From positions 3,299-67,298 of the forward strand of contig JAPLTX010000020.1 of assembly GCA_026397915.1 (NCBI GenBank): a stretch of 64,000 nt of DNA. The letters are read 5' to 3'. Positions 971 to 49,330 of the stretch are shown here, piece after piece. Source of the DNA: Verrucomicrobiota bacterium. Lineage in GTDB: Bacteria > Verrucomicrobiota > Verrucomicrobiia > CAIQCK01. The position numbers were made by a program, and so were the translations under genes. The notes below the pieces were generated by a model. That model made no database searches. It was not told where the DNA came from and saw nothing but the letters and a program-made list of their open reading frames with translations. Each line of letters opens with the position of its first letter. The stretch's first letter is position 1.

Positions 971-1729
971 ATGGCACTACTCGAAATCCGAAACCTGAAC
1001 GCAGGCATCGCGGGCAAGCACATCCTCAAGGGCATCAACCTCTCCATCAACGCCGGCGAGGTCCACGCCATCATGGGACCGAACGGCAGCGGCAAGAGCA
1101 CGCTCTCGCAGGTGCTCGCCGGTCGCAAGACCTTCAATGTCATCAGCGGCGAAGTAACTTACAACGGCAAGAACCTCCTCGAACTGGAGCCGGAGGAACG
1201 CGCCCACGAGGGCATTTTCCTCGCGTTCCAGTATCCGGTCGAGATTCCTGGCGTCAACAACACCTACTTCCTCAAGGCGGCCTACAACGAAATCCGCAAG
1301 CACCGCGGTGAGCCGGAACTGGACGCAATGGACTTCCTCGCGCTCGTGAAGGAGAAGATGAAACTGCTTCATCTGGAGCAGGATTTGCTGAACCGGCCGC
1401 TCAACGAAGGTTTCTCCGGCGGCGAGAAGAAGCGGAACGAGATTTTCCAGATGGCGGTGCTCGACCCGAAGCTGGCGATCCTCGACGAGACCGACTCCGG
1501 CCTCGACATTGACGCGCTCCGCGATGTCGCCGACGGCGTGAACAAACTGCGCCGGCCCGACAACGCCGCGCTCGTCATCACGCACTACCAGCGGCTGTTG
1601 AACTACGTCGTTCCGGATTTCGTTCACGTGCTGTTGAACGGTTGCATCGTCAAGTCCGGCGGCAAGGAACTGGCGCTGGAGTTGGAGGAAAAGGGTTACG
1701 ATTGGCTCGCCTGCCAGCCGTGTCTCTAA
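971..1729 (+). CDS. sufC: Fe-S cluster assembly ATPase SufC
   Basis: Walker A GPNGSGKST, ABC signature FSGGEKKR and Walker B LAILDETDSGLD; 252 aa; position in the suf operon. Confidence 0.92.
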   Translation: MALLEIRNLNAGIAGKHILKGINLSINAGEVHAIMGPNGSGKSTLSQVLAGRKTFNVISGEVTYNGKNLLELEPEERAHEGIFLAFQYPVEIPGVNNTYFLKAAYNEIRKHRGEPELDAMDFLALVKEKMKLLHLEQDLLNRPLNEGFSGGEKKRNEIFQMAVLDPKLAILDETDSGLDIDALRDVADGVNKLRRPDNAALVITHYQRLLNYVVPDFVHVLLNGCIVKSGGKELALELEEKGYDWLACQPCL

Positions 1730-1753
1730 CCGTCATCCGATCCGAAAAGAAAG

Positions 1754-3121
1754 ATGACCACAACGACTCAACAATCCAAACCCGCCCCGGCTGACAACGC
1801 GCAGGCGCATCTGGCTGCGTTCGACACGTTCGAGAAGGGCGGTGCGCGCCGCTTCCCAGCGTGGGTGAACGAACTGCGGCGGGCCGGCATCTCGCGTTTC
1901 ACCGCGCTCGGCTTTCCAACGCGGCGACTGGAAGATTGGAAATACACGAACGTCGCGCCGATCTCGCAGTTGCCGTTCAAGCCGGCAGTAAATCCTATGC
2001 CGGTCGCATTGTCGGCGGCGGACCTGGCACGCTTTGCGTTTGCTGGACTCGACGGCAGCCGGCTCGTTTTCGTCAACGGCCACTTCGTGCCAGGACTTTC
2101 CGCGATCTCCAAACTTTCGGTCGGCGTCAAGCTCGGCAGCCTTGCGGCGGCGATGAGCAGCGACGGTGATATCGTCAAGCAGCACCTTGGCCGCTACGCT
2201 AGCGCGACCGACCACGCTTTCCGCGCGCTCAACGTTGCGTTCTTCGCCGACGGCGCGTTCATCTACGTGCCGAAAGGCGTGGTCGTCGAGGAGCCGATTC
2301 ATCTGCTGTTTGTCGCCGTGGCCGGCGAGGACGGCACGGCGGCGCATCCGCGGAACTTGATCGTCGCGGAGGCCGGCAGCCGGCTCAAGGTCGTCGAGAG
2401 CTACGTCAGCGTCGGCAGCGCAGCTGGTTTCACTAACGCAGTAACGGAGATCGCCGTCGGCGAAGGCGCCAACGTCGAGCACTGCAAGTTTCAGGACGAA
2501 AGCCTCGGTGCGTTCCACGTCGCCACGATCCAGTCCAGCCTCGCGCGCAACAGCCGGTTCACGTCACACTCAATTTCCGTCGGCGCACAGATCGCGCGGC
2601 ACGACATCAACGCCGTCATGACCGGCGAGGGCGTCGAGTGCGTGCTCAACGGCCTCTACGTGGCCAGCGGCAGCCAGCTCGTGGACCATCACATGGTCGT
2701 GGATCACGCGCAGCCGCGTTGCGCCAGTCACGAGTTTTTCCACGGCATTCTCGGCGGCAAGTCGCGCGGCGTGTTCAACGGCAAGATTTTCGTCCGGCCC
2801 GGTGCGCAGCAGACCGATGCCAAGCAAACCAACCGCAACCTATTGCTCACTGACGATGCGACGGTGGACACGAAGCCGCAGTTGGAGATCTTCGCCGACG
2901 ATGTGAAGTGCATGCATGGCGCGACCGTCGGCCGACTTGATGAGGACGCCATTTTCTACCTGCGCAGCCGCGGCATCCCACACAACGCCGCGCGCCGGAT
3001 GCTGACACAGGCGTTCGCCAGCAACATCCTCGCCCGCATTGGCATTGAGCCGGTGCGCAAACAACTCGACGAGTTTCTGCAGAGCCACCTCGACGCGGAA
3101 ATCCGGGCGGTGGAGGGCTGA
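1754..3121 (+). CDS. sufD: Fe-S cluster assembly protein SufD
   Basis: 455 aa between sufC and sufU. The C-terminal beta-helix region is SufB/D-like (…DDATVDTKPQLEIFADDVKCMHGATVGRLDEDAIFYLRSRGI…). Confidence 0.88.
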   Translation: MTTTTQQSKPAPADNAQAHLAAFDTFEKGGARRFPAWVNELRRAGISRFTALGFPTRRLEDWKYTNVAPISQLPFKPAVNPMPVALSAADLARFAFAGLDGSRLVFVNGHFVPGLSAISKLSVGVKLGSLAAAMSSDGDIVKQHLGRYASATDHAFRALNVAFFADGAFIYVPKGVVVEEPIHLLFVAVAGEDGTAAHPRNLIVAEAGSRLKVVESYVSVGSAAGFTNAVTEIAVGEGANVEHCKFQDESLGAFHVATIQSSLARNSRFTSHSISVGAQIARHDINAVMTGEGVECVLNGLYVASGSQLVDHHMVVDHAQPRCASHEFFHGILGGKSRGVFNGKIFVRPGAQQTDAKQTNRNLLLTDDATVDTKPQLEIFADDVKCMHGATVGRLDEDAIFYLRSRGIPHNAARRMLTQAFASNILARIGIEPVRKQLDEFLQSHLDAEIRAVEG

Positions 3122-3123
3122 CC

Positions 3124-3594
3124 ATGTTTGAAGACCTCAACGATCTCTACCAGCAGGTCATCCTCGACCACAGCCGCAGCCCGCGGAATTTCAAGAAACT
3201 CGACGGCGCCAACCGCGTCGCGCACGGCCACAACCCGCTCTGCGGCGACCGCATCACCGTTTACCTGCATCTCGACGGCGACGTGATCAGTGACATCAGC
3301 TTCGAAGGCTCCGGCTGCGCCATCTCCAAAGCCTCTGCGTCCGTGATGACCACCACGCTGAAGGGCAAGACCATTGCCGAGGCGCAGAAGATGTTCGCCC
3401 AGTTCCGCCAGTTGGTCACGACCGACAAACCCGACGGCGAGGATATCGGCAAGCTTGCCGTGTTTGCCGGTGTGCACAAGTTTCCGGCGCGCGTGAAGTG
3501 CGCCATCCTCGCGTGGCACGCGCTCGTATCGGCGCTCGAAGGCCGGCCGTGCATGGTGACGACCGAGGAAAACCCAACCGCTCCCAAATCATGA
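3124..3594 (+). CDS. sufU: SUF-system NifU-family Fe-S scaffold / sulfur acceptor (SufU-like)
   Basis: Motifs NPLCGD and GSGCAISKASASVMT are typical of SufU/IscU-type proteins; 156 aa. Confidence 0.85.
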   Translation: MFEDLNDLYQQVILDHSRSPRNFKKLDGANRVAHGHNPLCGDRITVYLHLDGDVISDISFEGSGCAISKASASVMTTTLKGKTIAEAQKMFAQFRQLVTTDKPDGEDIGKLAVFAGVHKFPARVKCAILAWHALVSALEGRPCMVTTEENPTAPKS

Positions 3595-4142
3595 GTGCTA
3601 CAGACCCCACGGTGACTTTGACGCGCGACTGCGAGGCGGTGATGGTGCCGTCCGGCGCGACGGTGACACTGCAAAAAGGCGGACAGGTCGTCATCACCCA
3701 GTCGCTCGGCGGCACGTTCACGGTCGTGGTGAACGGCAACATGTTCCGCATCGCCGGCAAGGACGCCGACGCCATCGGCCGCGAGTCGCCCGCTGCGCCC
3801 GCTCAGACCGCGTCCGCGCCCGGTGGCCCCGTGGACGAGAAGTTGCTCTGGGCGCAGATGAAGACTTGTTTCGACCCGGAGATTCCCGTCAACGTCGTGG
3901 ATCTCGGCCTCATCTACGACTGCAAGGTTTCGCCGCTGCCCGCCGGCGGTAACCGCGTGGACGTGAAGATGACGCTCACCGCGCCCGGCTGCCCGATGGC
4001 CGGATCGATGGCCGCCGACGTGAAGACGAAACTCGAAACCGTTCCCGGCGTCACCGAAGTGAACGTGGACGTCGTCTGGGAGCCGCCGTGGAACCAGCAG
4101 ATGATGACCGAGGCGGCGAAACTGCAGCTCGGTTTGATGTGA
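3591..4142 (+). CDS. DUF59/MIP18-family Fe-S assembly protein (SufT-like) with an ~80-aa N-terminal extension
   Basis: ATG at 3591 overlaps the sufU stop (ATGA). The C-terminal half (CFDPEIPVNVVDLGLIYDC…TLTAPGCPMAG…) is DUF59-like. The listed ORF start at 3498 lies in another gene's 3' end and is less likely. Confidence 0.7.
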   Translation: MSATDPTVTLTRDCEAVMVPSGATVTLQKGGQVVITQSLGGTFTVVVNGNMFRIAGKDADAIGRESPAAPAQTASAPGGPVDEKLLWAQMKTCFDPEIPVNVVDLGLIYDCKVSPLPAGGNRVDVKMTLTAPGCPMAGSMAADVKTKLETVPGVTEVNVDVVWEPPWNQQMMTEAAKLQLGLM

Positions 4143-4153
4143 ACCGCCGAACC

Positions 4154-5407
4154 ATGAGCACCGCCAAACACCATCACACGCTCGACTGGGCCGCCATCCG
4201 CGCCGATTTCCCGATTCTCAATCAAAAGGTCCACGGCAAGCCGCTGGTGTATCTCGACAACGCTGCCACGAGCCAGAAACCGCTCGCGGTGATGGACGCG
4301 CTGCGCCACTACTACGAGCGCGACAACAGCAACGTCCACCGTGGCATCCACGAGCTGAGCAACCGTGCTACCGCCGGCTTCGAGGCCGCGCGCGAGCGGA
4401 CCGCCCGCTTTCTAAACGCTCGCGCCGCCGAGGAGATCGTCTTCACGCGCGGCACTACCGAGAGCATCAACCTTGTCGCCCATTCGTGGGCCGGCACGCA
4501 TCTCAAGGCCGGCGACAAGATTTTGCTCACCGAGATGGAGCACCACAGCAACATCGTCCCGTGGCAGCTCATTGCCGAGCGCGTCGGCGCGAAGCTCCTT
4601 TACGTGCCAGTCACCGGCGACGAGGGCTTGCTCGACCTGTCGCGTTTTGACAAATTGCTGAAGGACGGCGTCAAGCTCTTTGCCGTCACGCACATCTCCA
4701 ACACGCTCGGCACGGTCAACCCGGTTGCCGACCTCTGCCGGCGCGCGCGCGAACGCGGCATCGTTACACTCGTGGACGCGGCGCAAAGCGCGGGCCATTG
4801 CCCGGTGGACGTGCAGACGATCGGCTGCGACTTCCTCGCTATGTCCGGCCACAAGATTTGCGGACCGACCGGCATTGGCGTGCTCTACGGTCGCAGGGAT
4901 CGGCTGGAAGAAATGGCGCCTTACCAAGGCGGCGGTGAGATGATCTCCCACGTCGGCTTTTTCAAAACCGAGTGGAACGTCATCCCGCACAAGTTCGAAG
5001 CCGGCACGCCGGATATCTCCGGCGCGATCGGCTTGCACGCGGCGATGGACTACCTCGATAAGATCGGCCGTGCCGCGATTTTCGAGCACGACTGCGAGCT
5101 GGCTGCCTACGCTTACGAACGGCTCGCATCGCTCGGCGGCATCCGACTCTTCGGTCCTAAGACCAACCACGCCGGCCTCGTGAGCTTCCTGCTCGACGAC
5201 GTTCACGCACATGACGTGGTCACCTTCGCCGACCGGCTCGGCGTCGCGTTGCGCGGCGGCCACCATTGCAACCAGCCGCTCATGCACAAGCTCGGCGTCG
5301 AGTCCACCGCGCGCGCCAGTTTCTACTTCTACAACACCCGGGCCGAAGTGGATCGCCTGATCGAAGTCATCGGCGAAATCCGGAAGTTCTTCAGCCCAAA
5401 GACCTGA
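4154..5407 (+). CDS. sufS: Cysteine desulfurase SufS (class II aminotransferase)
   Basis: Lysine of the SGHK motif (AMSGHKICGPTG), HELSN… and the RGGHHC motif; ~417 aa. Start chosen at MSTAKHH, because the upstream in-frame extension overlaps the previous gene. Confidence 0.9.
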   Translation: MSTAKHHHTLDWAAIRADFPILNQKVHGKPLVYLDNAATSQKPLAVMDALRHYYERDNSNVHRGIHELSNRATAGFEAARERTARFLNARAAEEIVFTRGTTESINLVAHSWAGTHLKAGDKILLTEMEHHSNIVPWQLIAERVGAKLLYVPVTGDEGLLDLSRFDKLLKDGVKLFAVTHISNTLGTVNPVADLCRRARERGIVTLVDAAQSAGHCPVDVQTIGCDFLAMSGHKICGPTGIGVLYGRRDRLEEMAPYQGGGEMISHVGFFKTEWNVIPHKFEAGTPDISGAIGLHAAMDYLDKIGRAAIFEHDCELAAYAYERLASLGGIRLFGPKTNHAGLVSFLLDDVHAHDVVTFADRLGVALRGGHHCNQPLMHKLGVESTARASFYFYNTRAEVDRLIEVIGEIRKFFSPKT

Positions 5408-5409
5408 CC

Positions 5410-5889
5410 ATGCCACGAGCAGCGCAAAAACCAGAACGTAGCGGCCTCGGCCAGGTGTTGCACGAGCGCGGCCGGCGCATGACCCGCCAGCGTCAGGCCG
5501 TGTTCGACGCCGTCGTCGCCGCGGGTGGCCATCCGTGCGCCGATCAGGTGTTTGCGCGCGTGCGCCGGCGACTGCCGCATGTGAGCCTCGCCACCGTCTA
5601 TAACGCGCTGGAGGCGCTCGTGGGCTGCGGCCAGCTCTCCAAGATTCCCCGCACCGACCGCGGTCCCGCCCGTTACGACCCGCGGCGCGACGTCCACCAT
5701 CACGCCCGCTGTGTCGCGTGCAGCAAGGTCTGGGACATAGACGACAAAGCCATCGTCGTCCGCACGGTTTCCGCCCCGCGCCGTTTCAAGCCTGTTGGCT
5801 ACAAAGTGGAAATGCTCGTCGAATGCCCCGCCGACTGCCCCGGCGACGCCCGTATTTGCGTTGCCACCGTTGGCGCGAAAAGGTCCTGA
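5410..5889 (+). CDS. Fur-family transcriptional regulator (Fur/Zur/PerR-like)
   Basis: MTRQRQAVFDAV… winged-helix region, HHHARCVACSKVWD and C-terminal CPADCP metal-site motifs; begins 3 nt after the sufS stop. Confidence 0.8.
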   Translation: MPRAAQKPERSGLGQVLHERGRRMTRQRQAVFDAVVAAGGHPCADQVFARVRRRLPHVSLATVYNALEALVGCGQLSKIPRTDRGPARYDPRRDVHHHARCVACSKVWDIDDKAIVVRTVSAPRRFKPVGYKVEMLVECPADCPGDARICVATVGAKRS

Positions 5890-41141: not shown

Positions 41142-42674
41142 ATGGCGAACATCCTTCAAGAAATCGAACAACAGATCGCCGGCGCCAAGCGCGGCGTCGC
41201 CAAGCAGAACGTCGGCACCGTCCGAGAAATCGGCGACGGCGTGGCCAAGATCGAGGGCCTCACCGATGCGATGCTGAACGAGATGATAGATTTCGGCAAC
41301 GACATCTACGGCATCGCGCTCAACCTCGAAGAGACCGAGGTCGGCGCGATCATCCTCGGCGAATACACGCACATCAAGGAAGGCATGGAATGCCGCACCA
41401 CCGGCCGGCTCCTTAGCGTGCCCGTCGGCAAGGGTCTGCTCGGCCGCGTCGTCAACTCCATCGGCATGCCGCTCGACGGCAAAGGCCCGGTCAAGTCCGA
41501 CACGCTTTATCCCGTCGAGAAAATCGCCCCCGGCATCATCAAGCGCCGCTCGGTCAGTCAGCCCGTGCAGACCGGCATCATGGCCGTGGACGCGATGATC
41601 CCGATCGGCCGCGGCCAGCGCGAGTTGATCATCGGCGACCGCTCCACCGGCAAGACGACCATCGGCATTGACACGATCATCAACCAAGCCCGCCTGAACC
41701 GCGCCGCGGAGCAGGCCGGCGACAAGAGCGTTCGGCCGCTCTACTGCATCTACGTCGCCATCGGCCAGAAGCAGTCCAACATCGTCCGCGTCACCAACGT
41801 CCTCGAAGAGCAGGGCGCGATGCCTTACACCATCGTCGTCGCGGCGTCCGCCGCCGACACGGCCACCAACCAGTATCTCGCGCCGTTCGCCGGCGCGGCG
41901 ATGGGTGAGTGGTTCATGGACAATGGCATGGACGCGCTGATCATCTTCGACGACCTCTCCAAGCACGCCGTCGCTTATCGGCAGGTGTCGCTGGTGTTGC
42001 GCCGTCCGTCCGGCCGCGAGGCGTATCCGGGCGACGTGTTTTATCTGCACAGCCGCTTGCTGGAACGTTCCGCGCGTCTGAGCGAGAAGGCAGGCAACGG
42101 CTCGCTCACCGCGCTGCCGATCATCGAGACGCAGCTCGGCGACGTGTCCGCTTACATCCCGACGAACGTCATCTCCATTACCGACGGCCAGATTTATCTG
42201 GAAACCGATTTGTTCTACCAGGGCATCCGCCCCGCCATCTCGGTCGGCTTGTCGGTGTCGCGCGTCGGTTCCGCCGCGCAGGTCAAGGCGATGAAGCAGG
42301 TCGCCGGCCGCATCAAGGGCGAACTGGCCCAGTTCCGCGAGCTGGCGGCGTTCGCGCAGTTCGGCAGCGATCTCGATGCCAAGACGCAGGCGCAGCTCGA
42401 ACGCGGCAAGCGCATCGTGGAGGTCTTCAAGCAGCCGCAATACAACCCGGTGCCGGTTGAGGTGCAGGTCGGCGTCCTCTGGGCCGTTCAGAACGGCTTC
42501 TTCGACGATGTCTCCGTGGACAAGCTCAAAGATTGCCAGGCTAAGATGACCGACTACCTCACGTCCCGGAAGTCGGCGCTGATGGCGAAGATTTTGAAAG
42601 AAAAGGCGCTCAACGACGCGTTGATCGCCGAGCTGAAGGCCGCCGTCACAGAGTTCAAACAGACGTATCGGTAA
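41142..42674 (+). CDS. atpA: F0F1 ATP synthase subunit alpha
   Basis: P-loop GDRSTGKTT and typical alpha-subunit sequence throughout; 510 aa. Confidence 0.95.
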
Positions 42675-42733: not shown

Positions 42734-43330
42734 ATGGACTACGTAACAGCAATCAAACGCAAGGAGAGGATCGAGAACCTCATCCTGACCGTTCGTGGTC
42801 AGCGGGTGATGCTGGATTCGGATTTGGCCAAGATTTACAGAGTGACGACGAAGCAGCTTAATCAACAGTTGAAACGCAATCAGAGTCGTTTCCCAAAGGA
42901 CTTCGCGTTTCAACTTACGCGGCAAGAAGTTATGATCTTGAGGTCACAGATTGTGACCTCAAGTTTGCATGGTGGCCGGCGGTATCTCCCCTGGGTCTTC
43001 ACCGAGCACGGCGCGATCATGCTCGCCACCGTCCTGAACAGCCCTGTGGCGGTTGAGGCCAGTGTCCGCGTCGTCCGGGCCTTCGTCTATATGCGCGAGC
43101 AACTGGCGAAGCTCGGCAAGATAAGCTCGGCCGACGTGATGAAGAAGCTCGCCGAACTGGAAGGCCGCGTCGGCGAACACGACGAAGCCATCCGTCTCAT
43201 TTTCACGGCGCTCAGGCAGATGCTTGAACCAGCCGCGCCCGCCGAGGAAGCGCCGAAGCGGGAAATCGGTTTTCACGTGAGAGAAGCCCGCGGACGCTAC
43301 GTCGTCCGAACCAAGCGCAAACGATTTTAG
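42734..43330 (+). CDS. ORF6N/KilA-N-domain DNA-binding protein (phage antirepressor-like), inserted between atpA and atpG
   Basis: N-terminal …IRGQRVMLDSDLAKIY.V…K.LNQQ.KRN..RFP.DF.FQLT…E is the ORF6N (PF10543) signature. The 5' half has lower GC than the flanking atp genes. Confidence 0.75.
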   Translation: MDYVTAIKRKERIENLILTVRGQRVMLDSDLAKIYRVTTKQLNQQLKRNQSRFPKDFAFQLTRQEVMILRSQIVTSSLHGGRRYLPWVFTEHGAIMLATVLNSPVAVEASVRVVRAFVYMREQLAKLGKISSADVMKKLAELEGRVGEHDEAIRLIFTALRQMLEPAAPAEEAPKREIGFHVREARGRYVVRTKRKRF

Positions 43331-43333
43331 ACC

Positions 43334-44212
43334 ATGGCCAGCCCCCGCGATTTACGCCGACGCATCAAGTCGGTCAAGAACACGTCGCAGATCACCAAAG
43401 CGATGCAGATGGTGGCTGCCTCGAAGATGCGCAAGGCGCAGCAAGGCGCGCTCGCGGGCCGGCCTTATGCCGCGCTCATGAACACCGTGCTCGCTGAGGT
43501 CACCGCCAACATCGGCGACTTCAAGCATCCGCTGCTGGAGAAGCACCACACCGGCAAGCGCGCCGTGATCCTCATCAGCACCGACCGCGGCCTCTGCGGC
43601 GCGCTCAACAGCAACCTGATGCGTGAGGCGGCCAAGCTCGACAAGGCGACGACGCTCTACATCTGCGCCGGCCGTAAAGGCTCGCAGTTCATCGCCCGCA
43701 CCAAGCGCCAGCTCGCGGCGGAGTTCACCTACAAGGACACGCCGCAGTTTAGCGAGGCGCGCGCCATCGCGAAGTTTGCGCAGGACCTTTTCACCAAGGG
43801 CGAAGTGGACGGTGTGGACGTGCTCTACACGCGGTTCGTCTCGACGCTGAACCAGAAGCATGAACTCCGCCCGCTGCTGCCGGTTGGCGAACTGCAGGCC
43901 GTCGAGGCGGGCATGAACGGCGACCGCACAGGCGCGACGCTGGAGCGGACCGGCGTCGAGTATCTGTTCGAGCCGTCGTCTGGCGAGGTGCTCGGCACGC
44001 TGCTGCCGCACTACGTGAACTATCTCGTTTTCCAGATGCTGCTCGAAGCGCGCGCCAGCGAGCATAGCGCCCGCATGGTGGCGATGAAGAACGCCACCGA
44101 CAACGCCGCGCAGCTCATCAAGGACCTGACGATCGAATACAACAAGATGCGCCAGGCCAGCATCACAAATGAACTCTTGGAGATTGCATCCGCCCAAATG
44201 GCGACGGCTTAA
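43334..44212 (+). CDS. atpG: F0F1 ATP synthase subunit gamma
   Basis: N-terminal RRRIKSVKNTSQITKAMQMVAASKMRKAQ and C-terminal NELLEIASAQMA motifs. Confidence 0.92.
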   Translation: MASPRDLRRRIKSVKNTSQITKAMQMVAASKMRKAQQGALAGRPYAALMNTVLAEVTANIGDFKHPLLEKHHTGKRAVILISTDRGLCGALNSNLMREAAKLDKATTLYICAGRKGSQFIARTKRQLAAEFTYKDTPQFSEARAIAKFAQDLFTKGEVDGVDVLYTRFVSTLNQKHELRPLLPVGELQAVEAGMNGDRTGATLERTGVEYLFEPSSGEVLGTLLPHYVNYLVFQMLLEARASEHSARMVAMKNATDNAAQLIKDLTIEYNKMRQASITNELLEIASAQMATA

Positions 44213-45668: not shown

Positions 45669-46115
45669 ATGGCCTCAACGCTCAAACTCGAAATCGTCAC
45701 GCCGGAAGCCGTCGCCTACTCCGAGACGGTGGACATGGTCGTCCTGCCCGGCGCGGCGGGCGAACTCGGCGTGCTGGCCGGTCACGAGCCGCTCATGACC
45801 ACCGTCGTGCCCGGCGAGTTGCGCGTCATCCGGGGCAGCGAGGAAACCGTCATGGCCATCGGCTCCGGTTTCGCCGAGATCACGGGCGAGACCGTGCGCG
45901 TCCTGGCGGACATGGCTCTCCGCGCCGAGGAAATTGACGAAGCCGCCGCCATCGAGGCCCGCAAACGCGCCGAGCAGAGACTGGCCGAGAAACTGAGCGA
46001 CGAGGAAATCGTCACCGTCGAGGCGTCGTTGCAGAAGGCGCTGATCCAACTCGAAGTCAAACGCCGCTACCGCGGCCAGCCCACCGCCCACGGCCAGCAC
46101 TCACATCAGAAGTAG
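45669..46115 (+). CDS. atpC: F0F1 ATP synthase subunit epsilon
   Basis: N-terminal beta-sandwich (LKLEIVTPE…VVLPGAAGELGVLAGHEPLMT) and a C-terminal helical hairpin; end of the atp operon. Confidence 0.85.
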   Translation: MASTLKLEIVTPEAVAYSETVDMVVLPGAAGELGVLAGHEPLMTTVVPGELRVIRGSEETVMAIGSGFAEITGETVRVLADMALRAEEIDEAAAIEARKRAEQRLAEKLSDEEIVTVEASLQKALIQLEVKRRYRGQPTAHGQHSHQK

Positions 46116-46161
46116 CCGCCGAGGCTTGGCGGGATATTGATCGGGGTGTCTGTTAGCAATG

Positions 46162-46908
46162 CTAAGGTTGGAGTTCGTTGGCATTGACCACATTGCTTGC
46201 CACTACTCGCTGGTCGAACTCGTGGATCAAGTTTGTAATCGCAACACGTGCTTTCTGAAGCACGTCATGGTCAAGTTGAATCTTCTGGTCCACTGTCGCG
46301 CCGAAGGCTGGAAACGAATCACAAAATGCCTGATCAGCTTTCCCATCCGCGTGAATTAAAAGATGCCTTATCTCTAAATAAGGAAGCGCGGCGTCAATGG
46401 TTGCTTGCCGAACACCCAGATTAAGTTTTGTATTCATCTTTTGGAGTAAACTTTTCGTGCTCTTTTCGTTTTCGAGCTTCCTGAATACAGACTTTGAAAC
46501 CAACTTTACTACGTTGTTCCATGTCCCGGCAGTAAGGATGTCATTTGCTTCGAACTCTACCTTATGTTCGCCAATCAGGCGGTTTGGATCGATCCCCTTT
46601 CTCGCCGCTGCCTCCAGAAGTTCAGCCATATACTGGACCATATCTTCGTAAATGTCCTTGATATAGGATGCACACAACGTCGCCTTCAAATGATTCGCTG
46701 CAAGTTCTCGGTTGTTCGGTGTCTTGCCCCGCGCCGCAAGTCGAGGGTGTAAATGGGGGTCAACAGCATCGAAAATATGCGCAGCTCCTCTGGAGCTTAG
46801 CGCCCCTTGTGTGATAGCGATCTTCAGAACATCAGCAAGTTCGATGTCCGCCTCAAAATGGGCAGCACGATTAAGAAAACGAACGAGGAATTTGGTCTTC
46901 ATGGGCAT
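46162..46908 (-). CDS. HEPN-like protein (Rx4H motif), candidate abortive-infection/toxin RNase; second gene of a low-GC two-gene module
   Basis: 248 aa with LEIRHLLIHADG (R-x4-H) near the C-terminus, as in HEPN nucleases. Local GC is ~45% against ~65% in the flanks. It follows 55 nt after the 46964..47521 gene. Confidence 0.55.
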   Translation of the reverse strand: MPMKTKFLVRFLNRAAHFEADIELADVLKIAITQGALSSRGAAHIFDAVDPHLHPRLAARGKTPNNRELAANHLKATLCASYIKDIYEDMVQYMAELLEAAARKGIDPNRLIGEHKVEFEANDILTAGTWNNVVKLVSKSVFRKLENEKSTKSLLQKMNTKLNLGVRQATIDAALPYLEIRHLLIHADGKADQAFCDSFPAFGATVDQKIQLDHDVLQKARVAITNLIHEFDQRVVASNVVNANELQP

Positions 46909-46963
46909 GGGGCATTCCTTTTATAGGGAAATCTCTCGCGAATTATGCAACCTTTCAGCGCAA

Positions 46964-47521
46964 TCATTCGATTGGGTTCTCGAAAAGAGGGAACTTCATT
47001 TCATAGCTGTGCCCAAGATGTCTTCGCGCATCAGCATTATTGGATGCGTTTCTAAAAGCATTACCTAACTTTTCTCGAAGAGTCATGCTCTTGATTAAAC
47101 CCAGAAAGAACTCATTCTCCAACACCAATTCGTGCGCAGCCAATTCAGTCAGGTCTTCATCCGCCACCTTCACCCATTGACCACATTTGATGAAACCATC
47201 TCCACCGGGGAGAATCTCAAGTTTGGCACGATTCTCTATTAGCCAATGAGTAATTGCCATTCGTGCAATGATTTTCTGGATATCGAACAAGCTACGTCCG
47301 GCTATTTTTTCGACAGTCATCGGGTAACCAGACTCTCTCCCGACGCGATGCAACAACTTACCATGGTAATCGAATAGCCATATGAACCGGCTGATCATCT
47401 TTACTTCAACGGGACCGCCTAGACTGCAAACTTTGGATGATTCTTCCAGTAATAGAAACGCAGTCCCAATGTCTGGAGATAACTCACACGCTGATATCTC
47501 GTGAAAAAAGGGTTTGTTCAT
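46964..47521 (-). CDS. Hypothetical protein, first gene of the low-GC two-gene module
   Basis: 185-aa intact ORF with low GC; co-oriented with and immediately upstream of the HEPN-like gene. No recognisable motif. Confidence 0.5.
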   Translation of the reverse strand: MNKPFFHEISACELSPDIGTAFLLLEESSKVCSLGGPVEVKMISRFIWLFDYHGKLLHRVGRESGYPMTVEKIAGRSLFDIQKIIARMAITHWLIENRAKLEILPGGDGFIKCGQWVKVADEDLTELAAHELVLENEFFLGLIKSMTLREKLGNAFRNASNNADARRHLGHSYEMKFPLFENPIE

Positions 47522-47548
47522 TGTTAGTTCCAGTCTTGTCTTTATGAA

Positions 47549-47580
47549 CGCCCCGGCGGGCTTTGACTCCCGCCGGGGCG
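47549..47580 (-). terminator. GC-rich hairpin (12-bp stem) downstream of the 47605..48306 gene
   Basis: CGCCCCGGCGGG-cttgact-CCCGCCGGGGCG perfect inverted repeat sits between convergent/tandem minus-strand genes. It has no strong U-tract. Confidence 0.4.
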
Positions 47581-47604
47581 CGTTGATTCTTCGTTGCTAC
47601 TCGC

Positions 47605-48306
47605 CTACGCGACTCTGCACTGGGCGATGTCGCTCCAGGGGCTCCAGCCGTTGGGGCCGAAGGCGGCGAAGCGGAAGTAAACAACCTGGCCGGGCGTGAG
47701 GCCGCCTTGGGTGAAGCTGCTCTTGGTGCCTTCGTAGCCGAGTTGCCACGGGCCGTCGCGGTTGACGGCGTATTCACCCTTGTAGTTGTGGGCACCGGCC
47801 ACTTTGTGGCACTGGCCATCCACGGCACCTTCGGCGTCGCTGCGGGTGACGGAGAAGTCCGCGGGCGCGGGCAGGTCGCCGACCGGCTCGGGGGCGCCCT
47901 TGAGGGGCATCAGGCTGGAGCCGAGCAGGACGGGGTCGCGGGTGACTTTCTCGCAATCCTGCTTCGCTCCGGTCAGCTCGGCCTTGATGGCCTCGACGGC
48001 CGTGTCCACGGCGTCGTCGGCGGTCGTCTGGGCGGCTGCGGCCGTGGCTTGGTTGGTCACGGCGGTATCGTAGGCGGCAATGGTGGTTCCCAACGCCGTG
48101 ACACGCGCAGTGGTGTTCGGGAAGTTGGGGTTGTTGGTGAGGCCCGCTTTGGCATCCACCGCCAGTTGGCGGATGTCAGCGGGAGTTTTCTTTCCGAACT
48201 TGAACGCGATCTCGGCCATTCGTCCTTTCTGTCCGCCCCCCGATGGCGCGCCGGCCGCCTCGTAATAATCTTCCCCGTAGACGGCTTCACCATAGATGTT
48301 GGCCAT
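47605..48306 (-). CDS. Hypothetical protein with Ala/Thr-rich middle and beta-rich (FN3/Ig-like?) C-terminus
   Basis: 233-aa ORF with genome-typical GC; no secretion signal and no known motif. It lies next to phage-like repeat-protein and repeat-array features. Confidence 0.5.
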   Translation of the reverse strand: MANIYGEAVYGEDYYEAAGAPSGGGQKGRMAEIAFKFGKKTPADIRQLAVDAKAGLTNNPNFPNTTARVTALGTTIAAYDTAVTNQATAAAAQTTADDAVDTAVEAIKAELTGAKQDCEKVTRDPVLLGSSLMPLKGAPEPVGDLPAPADFSVTRSDAEGAVDGQCHKVAGAHNYKGEYAVNRDGPWQLGYEGTKSSFTQGGLTPGQVVYFRFAAFGPNGWSPWSDIAQCRVA

Positions 48307-48427: not shown

Positions 48428-48725
48428 TCATGTGACGGCGATCAAAAAGCATGTGCTGCCGGCCAAAGAACATGTGTCGGACAAGAGAAGGCATGTGTCG
48501 AAATCAAAATGGTATGTGCTGTCGGCCGGAAAGCATGTGTCCGATGAAAAAAAGCATGTATCGAAACCCAAACGGCATGTGCCGCCGGCCGGAAAGTATG
48601 TGTCGGACGAGAGAAGGCATGTATCGAAAACCAAACGGTATGTGCTGCCGGCCAGAAAGCATGTGCCGGATGAAAAAAAGCATGTATCGAAATCAAAACG
48701 ACACATGCTTTTTCTCGTCCGATAC
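48428..48725. repeat. Array of ~13 tandem 21-bp repeats with a (g/a)CATGT core, organised as 4 copies of a 63-bp super-repeat (three 21-bp variants A/B/C)
   Basis: CATGT cores recur at 48451, 48472, 48493, 48514, 48535, … 48682 with exact 21-bp spacing. The variants cycle as gcatgtgctgccggccRgaaa / gcatgtgtcggaYgaRaRaag / gcatgtatcgaaaWcaaaMgg. All six frames stay open across the array. Confidence 0.85.
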
Positions 48726-48901
48726 ATGACGAAACGCCGCCGTGAGTGACTTTTTCGGGCTGGGAATGGATGTTTTTTGCTCCAACACACGATCAACGAG
48801 CGATTTGCGCGACTTTTCCCAAAAAACAGCTTGTTTGGTCAAAAAACGACACTACTCTCCGCCTAGGACTCCGAACCCATCATTCCAACCGAGGAACCCA
48901 C

Positions 48902-49330
48902 ATGTCCTTCCATGCCGACCTGCCCGTGAACGGCACCAAGACCGACGCCAACCTCCTGCGCGAGAACTTCAACGCGCTCAAAGATGAGATAGACGCCGCG
49001 CCCACCACCCAGCAAGTCACCGACGCCATCAACAGCGCCGTCGCCGACAAACCGACGACCGGGGCGATGAACACCGCGATCAACAATGCCGTGGCCGACA
49101 AACCGACCACGCAACAAGTCACCGACGCCATCAACGGCGCCGTGGCTGACCGGCCGACCAACGACGCGATGACCCTCGCCGTCAGCGACGCCATCAACGG
49201 CACGCCGCGCAACGTGGACAGCATCGGCACGCTCGACATCGTCATGAGCGACCCGCCCACGCAGGGCGAAGTCCAGCTCCTCCTCGACAACTACAACAAC
49301 CTCGTCCGGGCGTTGCGGAGAAATATCTGA
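48902..49330 (+). CDS. Repeat-containing protein, phage tail-fibre-like (tandem ~19-aa QQVTDAINxAVADKPTT repeats)
   Basis: ATG with a GAGGAA Shine-Dalgarno-like upstream; three direct peptide repeats; begins ~180 nt after the repeat array. Confidence 0.55.
   Translation: MSFHADLPVNGTKTDANLLRENFNALKDEIDAAPTTQQVTDAINSAVADKPTTGAMNTAINNAVADKPTTQQVTDAINGAVADRPTNDAMTLAVSDAINGTPRNVDSIGTLDIVMSDPPTQGEVQLLLDNYNNLVRALRRNI

Follow-up and report, generated by a model that had tools for sequence, protein, structure and literature searches.

Within a 64,000-nucleotide stretch of the Verrucomicrobiota contig JAPLTX010000020.1, hereafter the window, two adjacent genes of foreign base composition lie beside the atp operon. 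We read this block, with modest confidence, as an acquired cassette in which geneB encodes a self-contained HEPN ribonuclease (RNase) of abortive infection (Abi) and geneA a portable regulator or sensor that is coupled to interchangeable effectors. A bolder formulation, in which geneA founds an undescribed regulator or sensor family of a modular two-gene anti-phage system and geneB separately represents a new single-gene HEPN Abi family, is tentative, and we rate it as possible but short of probable. A first-pass annotation had presented the pair as a low-GC module with a HEPN-like member. The genes stand much as it described them; what has changed is the direction of the link, which runs from the side of geneA: members of this rare family are followed in every case by a putative effector, and by a different one each time. 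The features on which the argument draws are as follows.

46964..47521, minus strand: geneA, an open reading frame (ORF) of 185 amino acids
46162..46908, minus strand: geneB, an ORF of 248 amino acids, or of 246 from the second ATG at 46902
46909..46963, minus strand: the 55-nt spacer between geneA and geneB, with an AAGGAA hexamer (sequence and terminator scan)
46150..47545, minus strand: the low-GC cassette (approximately 0.45-0.48) of exactly two genes (composition profile, per-gene GC and third-position GC, identical contigs)
46351..46368, minus strand: codons for R181-H182-L-L-I-H186, the R-[polar]-x3-H HEPN motif (149/149 invariance, helix boundaries)
46564..46581, minus strand: codons for R110-L-I-G-E-H115, a second R-x4-H (R conserved in 96%, H in 93%)
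47549..47580, no strand: hairpin at the upstream cassette edge, a perfect 12-bp GC stem closed by an 8-nt loop

We read the block as a two-gene cassette gained horizontally, its composition clearly foreign to its surroundings. Both ORFs, which the first-pass annotation had placed in the same orientation at 185 and then 248 residues with 55 nt between them, lie on the minus strand, and its low-GC block by the atp operon is borne out by composition: geneA has a GC content of 0.444 and a third-position GC (GC3) of 0.46, and geneB of 0.478 and 0.50, against 0.64-0.66 and 0.83-0.92 for the neighbours atpD, atpC and orf233. The bounds of the block are those of the two genes, since it begins just past the 12-bp GC hairpin and stops at the geneB stop codon. 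The gene atpC occupies 45669..46115 on the plus strand, 46 nt separating its stop from that of geneB; with the two on opposite strands and their stops facing one another, the cassette converges on the atp operon. At the other edge, the hairpin sits 24 nt past the stop of orf233 (47605-48306, minus strand), is probably the terminator of that host gene, and marks the insertion boundary. A terminator scan found none between geneA and geneB, consistent with their co-transcription, and a Shine-Dalgarno-like AAGGAA (46915-46920) lies 6 nt ahead of the first ATG of geneB. Homologues of geneB start at the second methionine (MKTK...), so the protein may be 246 residues long.

Both proteins are entered at NCBI as hypothetical proteins of a Verrucomicrobia metagenome-assembled genome (NT105_07205 and NT105_07210), and three short contigs from other sequencing runs (L073, L074 and L075) are 100% identical to the window. 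The three share a break point at position 47633, within the 3' end of orf233, which suggests an assembly-graph branch there, owing to strain variation or to a repeat close to the upstream side of the cassette. A search of the cassette borders for direct repeats, att sites and tRNA genes found nothing convincing. A match to the type I antitoxin RNA PtaRNA1 (RF01811) at 47515-47583 on the plus strand, antisense to the start of geneA, was set aside as chance because its 30.1 bits fall short of the gathering score (47), its 5' stem is not intact and the model is matched by the 12-bp GC hairpin alone; across seven related loci, no Rfam family reached its gathering score.

The case for geneB begins with its predicted structure. 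The AlphaFold model (predicted local distance difference test score, pLDDT, 91.8) is a four-helix up-down bundle resembling solved HEPN domains, and its best structural matches are YutE, the SO_3166 HEPN toxin, the HEPN domain of sacsin, HI0074, 7ae2, 8xdj, TT1696, AF0298 and 4nqf. The HEPN toxins of TA (toxin-antitoxin) systems, 5yep, 7ae2 and 8xdj, are the closest of its structural matches, 7ae2 being the toxin of an MNT-HEPN pair and 8xdj likewise a HEPN toxin structure; AbiA, Roquin, HepS, Csm6 and LsoA appear lower down. A Foldseek search of the PDB with the same model returned no significant match. HEPN domains are defined by an Rx4-6H motif ending helix 3, a polar residue directly after the arginine and an acidic residue in helix 2 (PMC3710099). 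The first two have counterparts in geneB: R181-H182...H186 stands at the C-terminal end of the helix spanning residues 168-186, and the residue after the conserved arginine is the polar H182. A candidate for the third is E88, within a long helix (64-104) whose assignment as helix 2, and whose proximity to the motif, we take from topology. The first-pass description of the 248-residue protein as HEPN-like is thus upheld by fold and by R181, H182 and H186 at the helix end, and the prospect it raised of a non-HEPN housekeeping protein did not materialise, no profile in Pfam, NCBIfam, PADLOC or PHROGs laying claim to geneB. On the evidence of the model, geneB is a predicted single-domain HEPN-fold protein of a widespread, unannotated family of approximately 246 residues. 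An arrangement as two tandem HEPN halves was rejected when hhalign, comparing the N- and C-terminal halves, gave a probability of 0.1, and aligning the geneB profile with neighbouring HEPN proteins at other loci (a Swt1-like protein in L013 and an RNxxxH protein in L058) was uninformative.

An R-x4-H attracted attention to geneB, yet by itself such a motif proves little: when geneB is shuffled with its composition preserved, 42% of the shuffles contain one, and geneA itself has two. What makes the motif of geneB meaningful, in residues 178-189 (LEIRHLLIHADG), is its structural position together with its conservation. Across 149 unique full-length homologues, which share 40-100% identity with the query, none departs from R181, H182 or H186 (149/149), and the doubt the first-pass annotation had entered, that the Rx4H residues might vary among homologues, is therefore removed. 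E23, K84, R143 and D232 are likewise invariant, and E88 is kept in 147 of the 149 (98.7%). The second R-x4-H, R110...H115, is possibly an accessory or substrate-binding element.

The family is broad, sparse and evidently mobile in its distribution. At least 195 homologues, nearly all of 244-248 residues, come from many phyla, and the family numbers at least 150 unique sequences from Verrucomicrobiota, Bacteroidota, Pseudomonadota, Actinomycetota and Myxococcota (Nannocystis). A scan of approximately 185,000 species, with one genome for each, yielded just 15 loci in unrelated phyla, with hosts that include Lysobacter, Pseudomonas, Curvibacter, Paraburkholderia, Syntrophorhabdus, Planctomycetales and Actinomycetota, as well as Gemmatimonadaceae, Chitinophagales, Fluviicola, Nannocystis and others. 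Homologues are found additionally on two viral contigs and at 42 metagenomic loci; tblastn against phage and plasmid collections gave no match to geneB. In all 16 of 16 loci, the GC content of the geneB homologue is below that of the surrounding locus. One member, P0124 from Alloalcanivorax venustensis (cluster P0061), is an N-terminally extended homologue of 257 residues labelled 'ribosomal protein L22' in both NCBI and IMG; it is very likely a mis-annotated member of this HEPN family.

Comparison of genomic contexts, by BLASTP clustering, phmmer and a geneA hidden Markov model (HMM), covered 56 unique geneB loci. Every neighbour family is confined to one or two of these, leaving geneB without a conserved partner. 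The two-gene module of the first-pass annotation is, as a conserved unit, accordingly not borne out: geneA stands beside geneB in one locus of the 56, namely the window, and geneB is often alone. At L020 and L017, for instance, both in GC-rich hosts, the low-GC insert consists of geneB alone, and at L027 and L030 geneB is solitary amid housekeeping genes; at L001, L002 and L007 the low-GC insert also takes in another, unrelated gene upstream.

Many immediate neighbours of geneB homologues are defence or toxin genes, known or candidate. They include AbiTii; Mrr_cat and FRG proteins; the SymE and ParE toxins; a CAP12/Pycsar-type TIR protein, a Schlafen-like helicase with NERD, a Swt1-HEPN protein and a 1709-residue Eco57I/MmeI-type enzyme; PDC-S06 (1124 bits), PDC-S41, PDC-S35, PDC-S59/S66 and a PD-Lambda-5_B-like methylase; and a TIR protein accompanied by a prophage that carries an S24 repressor, Mor, AntA, portal and terminase. 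To judge from these neighbours, the geneB family has the character of a mobile defence-island unit that is complete in a single gene. The defence setting proposed in the first-pass annotation thus holds by association, for geneB homologues as for the relatives of geneA. The upstream neighbours of two geneB homologues (L058, 4828-5781, and L044, 1169-1879) have no Pfam or PADLOC match, that of L058 has an RNxxxH-type motif (RNSLLH), and they may be further unannotated HEPN-like proteins stacked by geneB. A search with TRF found no consistent tandem-repeat arrays flanking 20 geneB loci or in the window, by which a type III RNA antitoxin for geneB is ruled out.

The evidence that geneA belongs with an effector comes from its own relatives, which are few. 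The first reading of the 185-residue protein as lacking a recognisable domain is sustained by profile scans (Pfam, NCBIfam, PADLOC and PHROGs, all without a match) and by an empty fold search. Searched exhaustively with HMMER, a set of 1.84 billion representative proteins yielded only P0122 (57% identity) and P0123 (42%), and no further relatives came from a profile search over 5.8 billion proteins, so that the family comprises three clusters overall; tblastn of a plasmid collection and a scan of viral contigs found no geneA. P0122 is followed, after 40 nt and in the same orientation, by a 269-residue protein with several strongly hydrophobic segments, at a locus adjoining Pycsar (PycC and PycTIR) and a SIR2-APAZ/short prokaryotic Argonaute system. 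P0123 is followed, after 1 nt and again co-oriented, by a 198-residue NYN-domain protein, a predicted RNase, and its locus adjoins Gabija (GajA and GajB) and a NucC-like nuclease. These downstream partners have no PADLOC match. The 269-residue partner of P0122 (L021) was considered as a diverged geneB and rejected, hhalign giving a probability of 0.1; it is a membrane protein with multiple transmembrane segments. Since all three members of the family precede differing candidate toxic effectors in a defence setting, geneA is a candidate portable regulator, whether antitoxin or sensor.

Two further properties of the geneA family bear on how such a regulator might be built. Isoelectric points (pI) are 5.7-6.2 within the family (6.2 for geneA) and 7.8-8.9 among the downstream partners (7.8 for geneB). 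Residues 1-137 of geneA share 63% and 42% identity with the two relatives, and the last 48 residues 40% and 32%. The N-terminal stretch of approximately 137 residues may therefore form a common core, with the variable C-terminal tail as the effector-specific part. The island around the P0123 pair and Gabija (L024) contains a DUF6602/NucC-like nuclease and a 1396-residue protein with no recorded Pfam match (552-1529 and 1587-5777), and may hold more uncharacterised defence genes.

From the fold onward, the account of how the cassette might work is one that we infer, and this applies to RNase activity, toxicity, trigger, interaction of geneA with geneB, and anti-phage function alike. By analogy with characterised HEPN enzymes, geneB would be an oligomeric, metal-independent endoribonuclease. 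An active site formed across the oligomer interface is a property of the HEPN superfamily (PMC3710099), and that of geneB would bring together R181, H182 and H186, where helix 3 ends, probably across such an interface and probably assisted by E88. Phage infection would activate geneB to cut the RNA of the cell (tRNA, rRNA or mRNA, for example), leaving 2',3'-cyclic phosphate ends, and translation would shut down, with growth arrest as the abortive outcome. Because geneB is solitary in most genomes, it is probably self-contained, combining sensor and effector in one protein that would stay inactive until directly triggered. It may have arrived in this genome together with geneA, or gained geneA later. 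The role of geneA could be that of an antitoxin-like inhibitor restraining the effector, or that of a sensor licensing it.

Several observations weigh against an acquired Abi cassette with a portable regulator. Of the 56 unique geneB loci, all but the one in the window lack geneA, and even the nearest relative of geneB (L001, 74% identity) has an upstream gene that differs from geneA. A promoter scan of the cassette detected none, and within the window there is no recognisable defence island around it, the flanks being the atp operon and ORFan genes. The geneA structure model is weak (best pLDDT 71, the other four 36-48), finds no fold match, and offers no detectable DNA-binding or other domain; the family has three members, two of them from one sample set, and effector swapping is correspondingly thinly evidenced. 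For geneB, the Pfam, NCBIfam, PADLOC and PHROGs profiles return nothing meaningful either for the protein itself or for approximately 33 members scanned singly, and sequence and profile searches of the PDB give only noise, such as chlorite dismutase at an E value of about 1. In a rival account, a solitary geneB, itself a defence or toxin gene, and an unrelated accessory geneA came to be stacked by chance at a shared insertion hotspot. With geneA missing from 55 of 56 unique loci, one-gene low-GC inserts of geneB on record, an unrelated mix of upstream neighbours elsewhere (many of them self-standing defence genes), and a 55-nt gap that is no proof of an operon, chance stacking is a serious contender, which we nonetheless consider unlikely. 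Against it, all three members of the geneA family lie on the same strand as a downstream gene of toxic-effector type, at tight gaps of 55, 40 and 1 nt; geneA and geneB are moreover alike in their atypical composition and between them take up the whole of a single insertion, with host DNA on both sides and no terminator found between the two.

A different partition of roles would make the pair a type II TA addiction module, in which a labile antitoxin, geneA, neutralises a constitutively active geneB, and which serves to stabilise mobile DNA or in stress rather than in phage defence. The arrangement has the right outline: a small acidic protein upstream and a basic, predicted RNase downstream (pI 6.2 and 7.8), adjacent and co-oriented across a short gap, and acquired horizontally. 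The HEPN toxins 5yep, 7ae2 and 8xdj are the closest structural matches of geneB, and there are documented cases of one antitoxin family partnering many families of toxin (PMC8832971, PMC10440598). We nevertheless judge this improbable, for a constitutive toxin could not stand alone, yet most geneB members have neither a conserved neighbour nor a tandem-repeat RNA antitoxin. Moreover, geneA has no detectable DNA-binding domain; geneB members and geneA relatives sit in defence islands, not on plasmids, where no matches were found; and the pair, which such a module should carry from genome to genome, is seen in 1 of 56 loci, the geneA partners coming from three unrelated families. More improbable still is a geneB that is non-catalytic or without a role in defence, such as a regulator that binds RNA or nucleotides or a mobile-element gene of some other role, the Rx4H being kept for binding. 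Some HEPN domains are indeed non-catalytic binding modules (PMC3710099), HEPN activity is here a prediction from a model with no significant Foldseek match, and the extra invariants E23, K84, R143 and D232, with the second R-x4-H, hint that the active site may depart from the canonical one. Against this stand the full R-[polar]-x3-H, 100% invariant at its canonical position and probably accompanied by a conserved acidic residue, and a patchy, horizontally transferred distribution among defence-gene neighbours. The cassette of a self-contained HEPN RNase and a portable regulator is the account we retain.

Set beside known systems, geneB shares with the HEPN superfamily (PMC3710099) a helical bundle, an R-[polar]-x3-H ending helix 3 and probably the acidic residue, for which the conserved E88 in the long helix before the motif is the candidate, as well as a sporadic, horizontally transferred distribution beside restriction-modification, Abi and other defence genes. 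It differs in escaping detection by profiles, in its size (246 residues, with long inserts between helices 1-2 and 2-3), and in its many extra invariant polar residues and second R-x4-H (R110...H115). The nearest named family is RiboL-PSP-HEPN (PF18735): UniProt gives that name to A0A1Z4BY87 (P0087), 57% identical to geneB, and both are bacterial HEPN proteins of Abi type, PF18735 being described as distantly related to AbiD/AbiF. However, in the Pfam copy searched, the PF18735 profile matches neither geneB nor approximately 33 members, P0087 included, at E-value cut-offs from 1 to 10. RiboL-PSP-HEPN proteins occur fused to endoRNase L-PSP or in an operon with ParB (PMC3710099), and neither arrangement is present among the annotated or scanned neighbours at geneB loci. 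Membership of geneB in RiboL-PSP-HEPN, as far as sequence comparison goes, could not be confirmed by profile or by context.

A functional parallel is HepS, a single-gene HEPN Abi protein of the Gifsy-1 prophage, which recognises a tail-tip protein of phage and cuts tRNAs in their anticodon loops (PMC13043305). The single-gene, triggered mode proposed for geneB would, by analogy, resemble that of HepS, although the two have no detectable sequence similarity and geneB here has an upstream partner gene where HepS has none. The HEPN-MNT (HepT/MntA) and RnlA/RnlB-LsoA/LsoB systems are likewise two-gene arrangements of a HEPN RNase toxin with an adjacent protein that controls it, and such toxins are among the top structural matches of geneB. 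However, geneA is not an MNT nucleotidyltransferase, nor is one adjacent; it has no RnlB-like match, and its pairing with geneB is not conserved over the geneB family. For geneA, the parallel lies with promiscuous antitoxins, namely Panacea and the NetFlax combinatorial networks, in which one domain combines with many toxin families (PMC8832971, PMC10440598). Like these, and like effector swapping in Pycsar and CBASS, the geneA family is found beside unrelated putative effectors (a HEPN RNase, a NYN RNase and a membrane protein). Unlike Panacea, it resembles neither DUF4065 nor any annotated domain, and it is represented by three examples. The first-pass remark that the pair matches no named defence system is sustained by PADLOC-DB v2, where neither geneA nor geneB has a match at E<=1. 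The cassette, then, resembles HEPN-based Abi and TA systems, yet is not HEPN-MNT, RnlAB/LsoAB, a PADLOC system or a type III TA system. What is new is an unannotated HEPN family and a candidate partner family of novel, effector-swapping type.

Should this reading of geneB be confirmed, its family would bring to the anti-phage systems a single-gene HEPN effector of wide phylogenetic spread, one invisible to defence-island surveys because Pfam, NCBIfam and PADLOC leave it unannotated. If true, the geneA family would be a compact instance of effector swapping, one small protein being combined with two RNase folds or a membrane protein, and would help to show how regulators and toxic effectors recombine. 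Neither would be a conceptual surprise, HEPN RNases being already well known in TA, Abi and CRISPR systems, and the pairing rests on three loci.

Elsewhere in the window, an ORF of 198 residues at 42734-43330 (plus strand) lies between atpA (41142-42674) and atpG (43334-44212) in a local GC dip to approximately 0.50, and is an extra, probably acquired gene within the atp operon. A PDB sequence search with it gave no match; its sequence may resemble ORF6N/KilA-N-type DNA-binding proteins. Upstream of the cassette, the stretch from 47.6 to 52 kb consists of ORFans without a Pfam match. One of these, orf233 (47605-48306, minus strand), has a weak PHROG match to 'minor tail protein' (E value 7e-5). 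Between orf233 and orf194, a lower-GC stretch holds a tandem repeat at 48449-48700 with a period of 63/126 nt, approximately four copies and 80-86% matches, which is read through by ORFs of both strands to give repetitive peptides. Within orf194 itself (48746-49330, plus strand) there are 2.9 copies of a 51-nt (17-residue) repeat, TTQQVTDAINxAVADKP, at 49004-49150. The ORFan stretch as a whole could be a phage remnant or a surface-protein locus.

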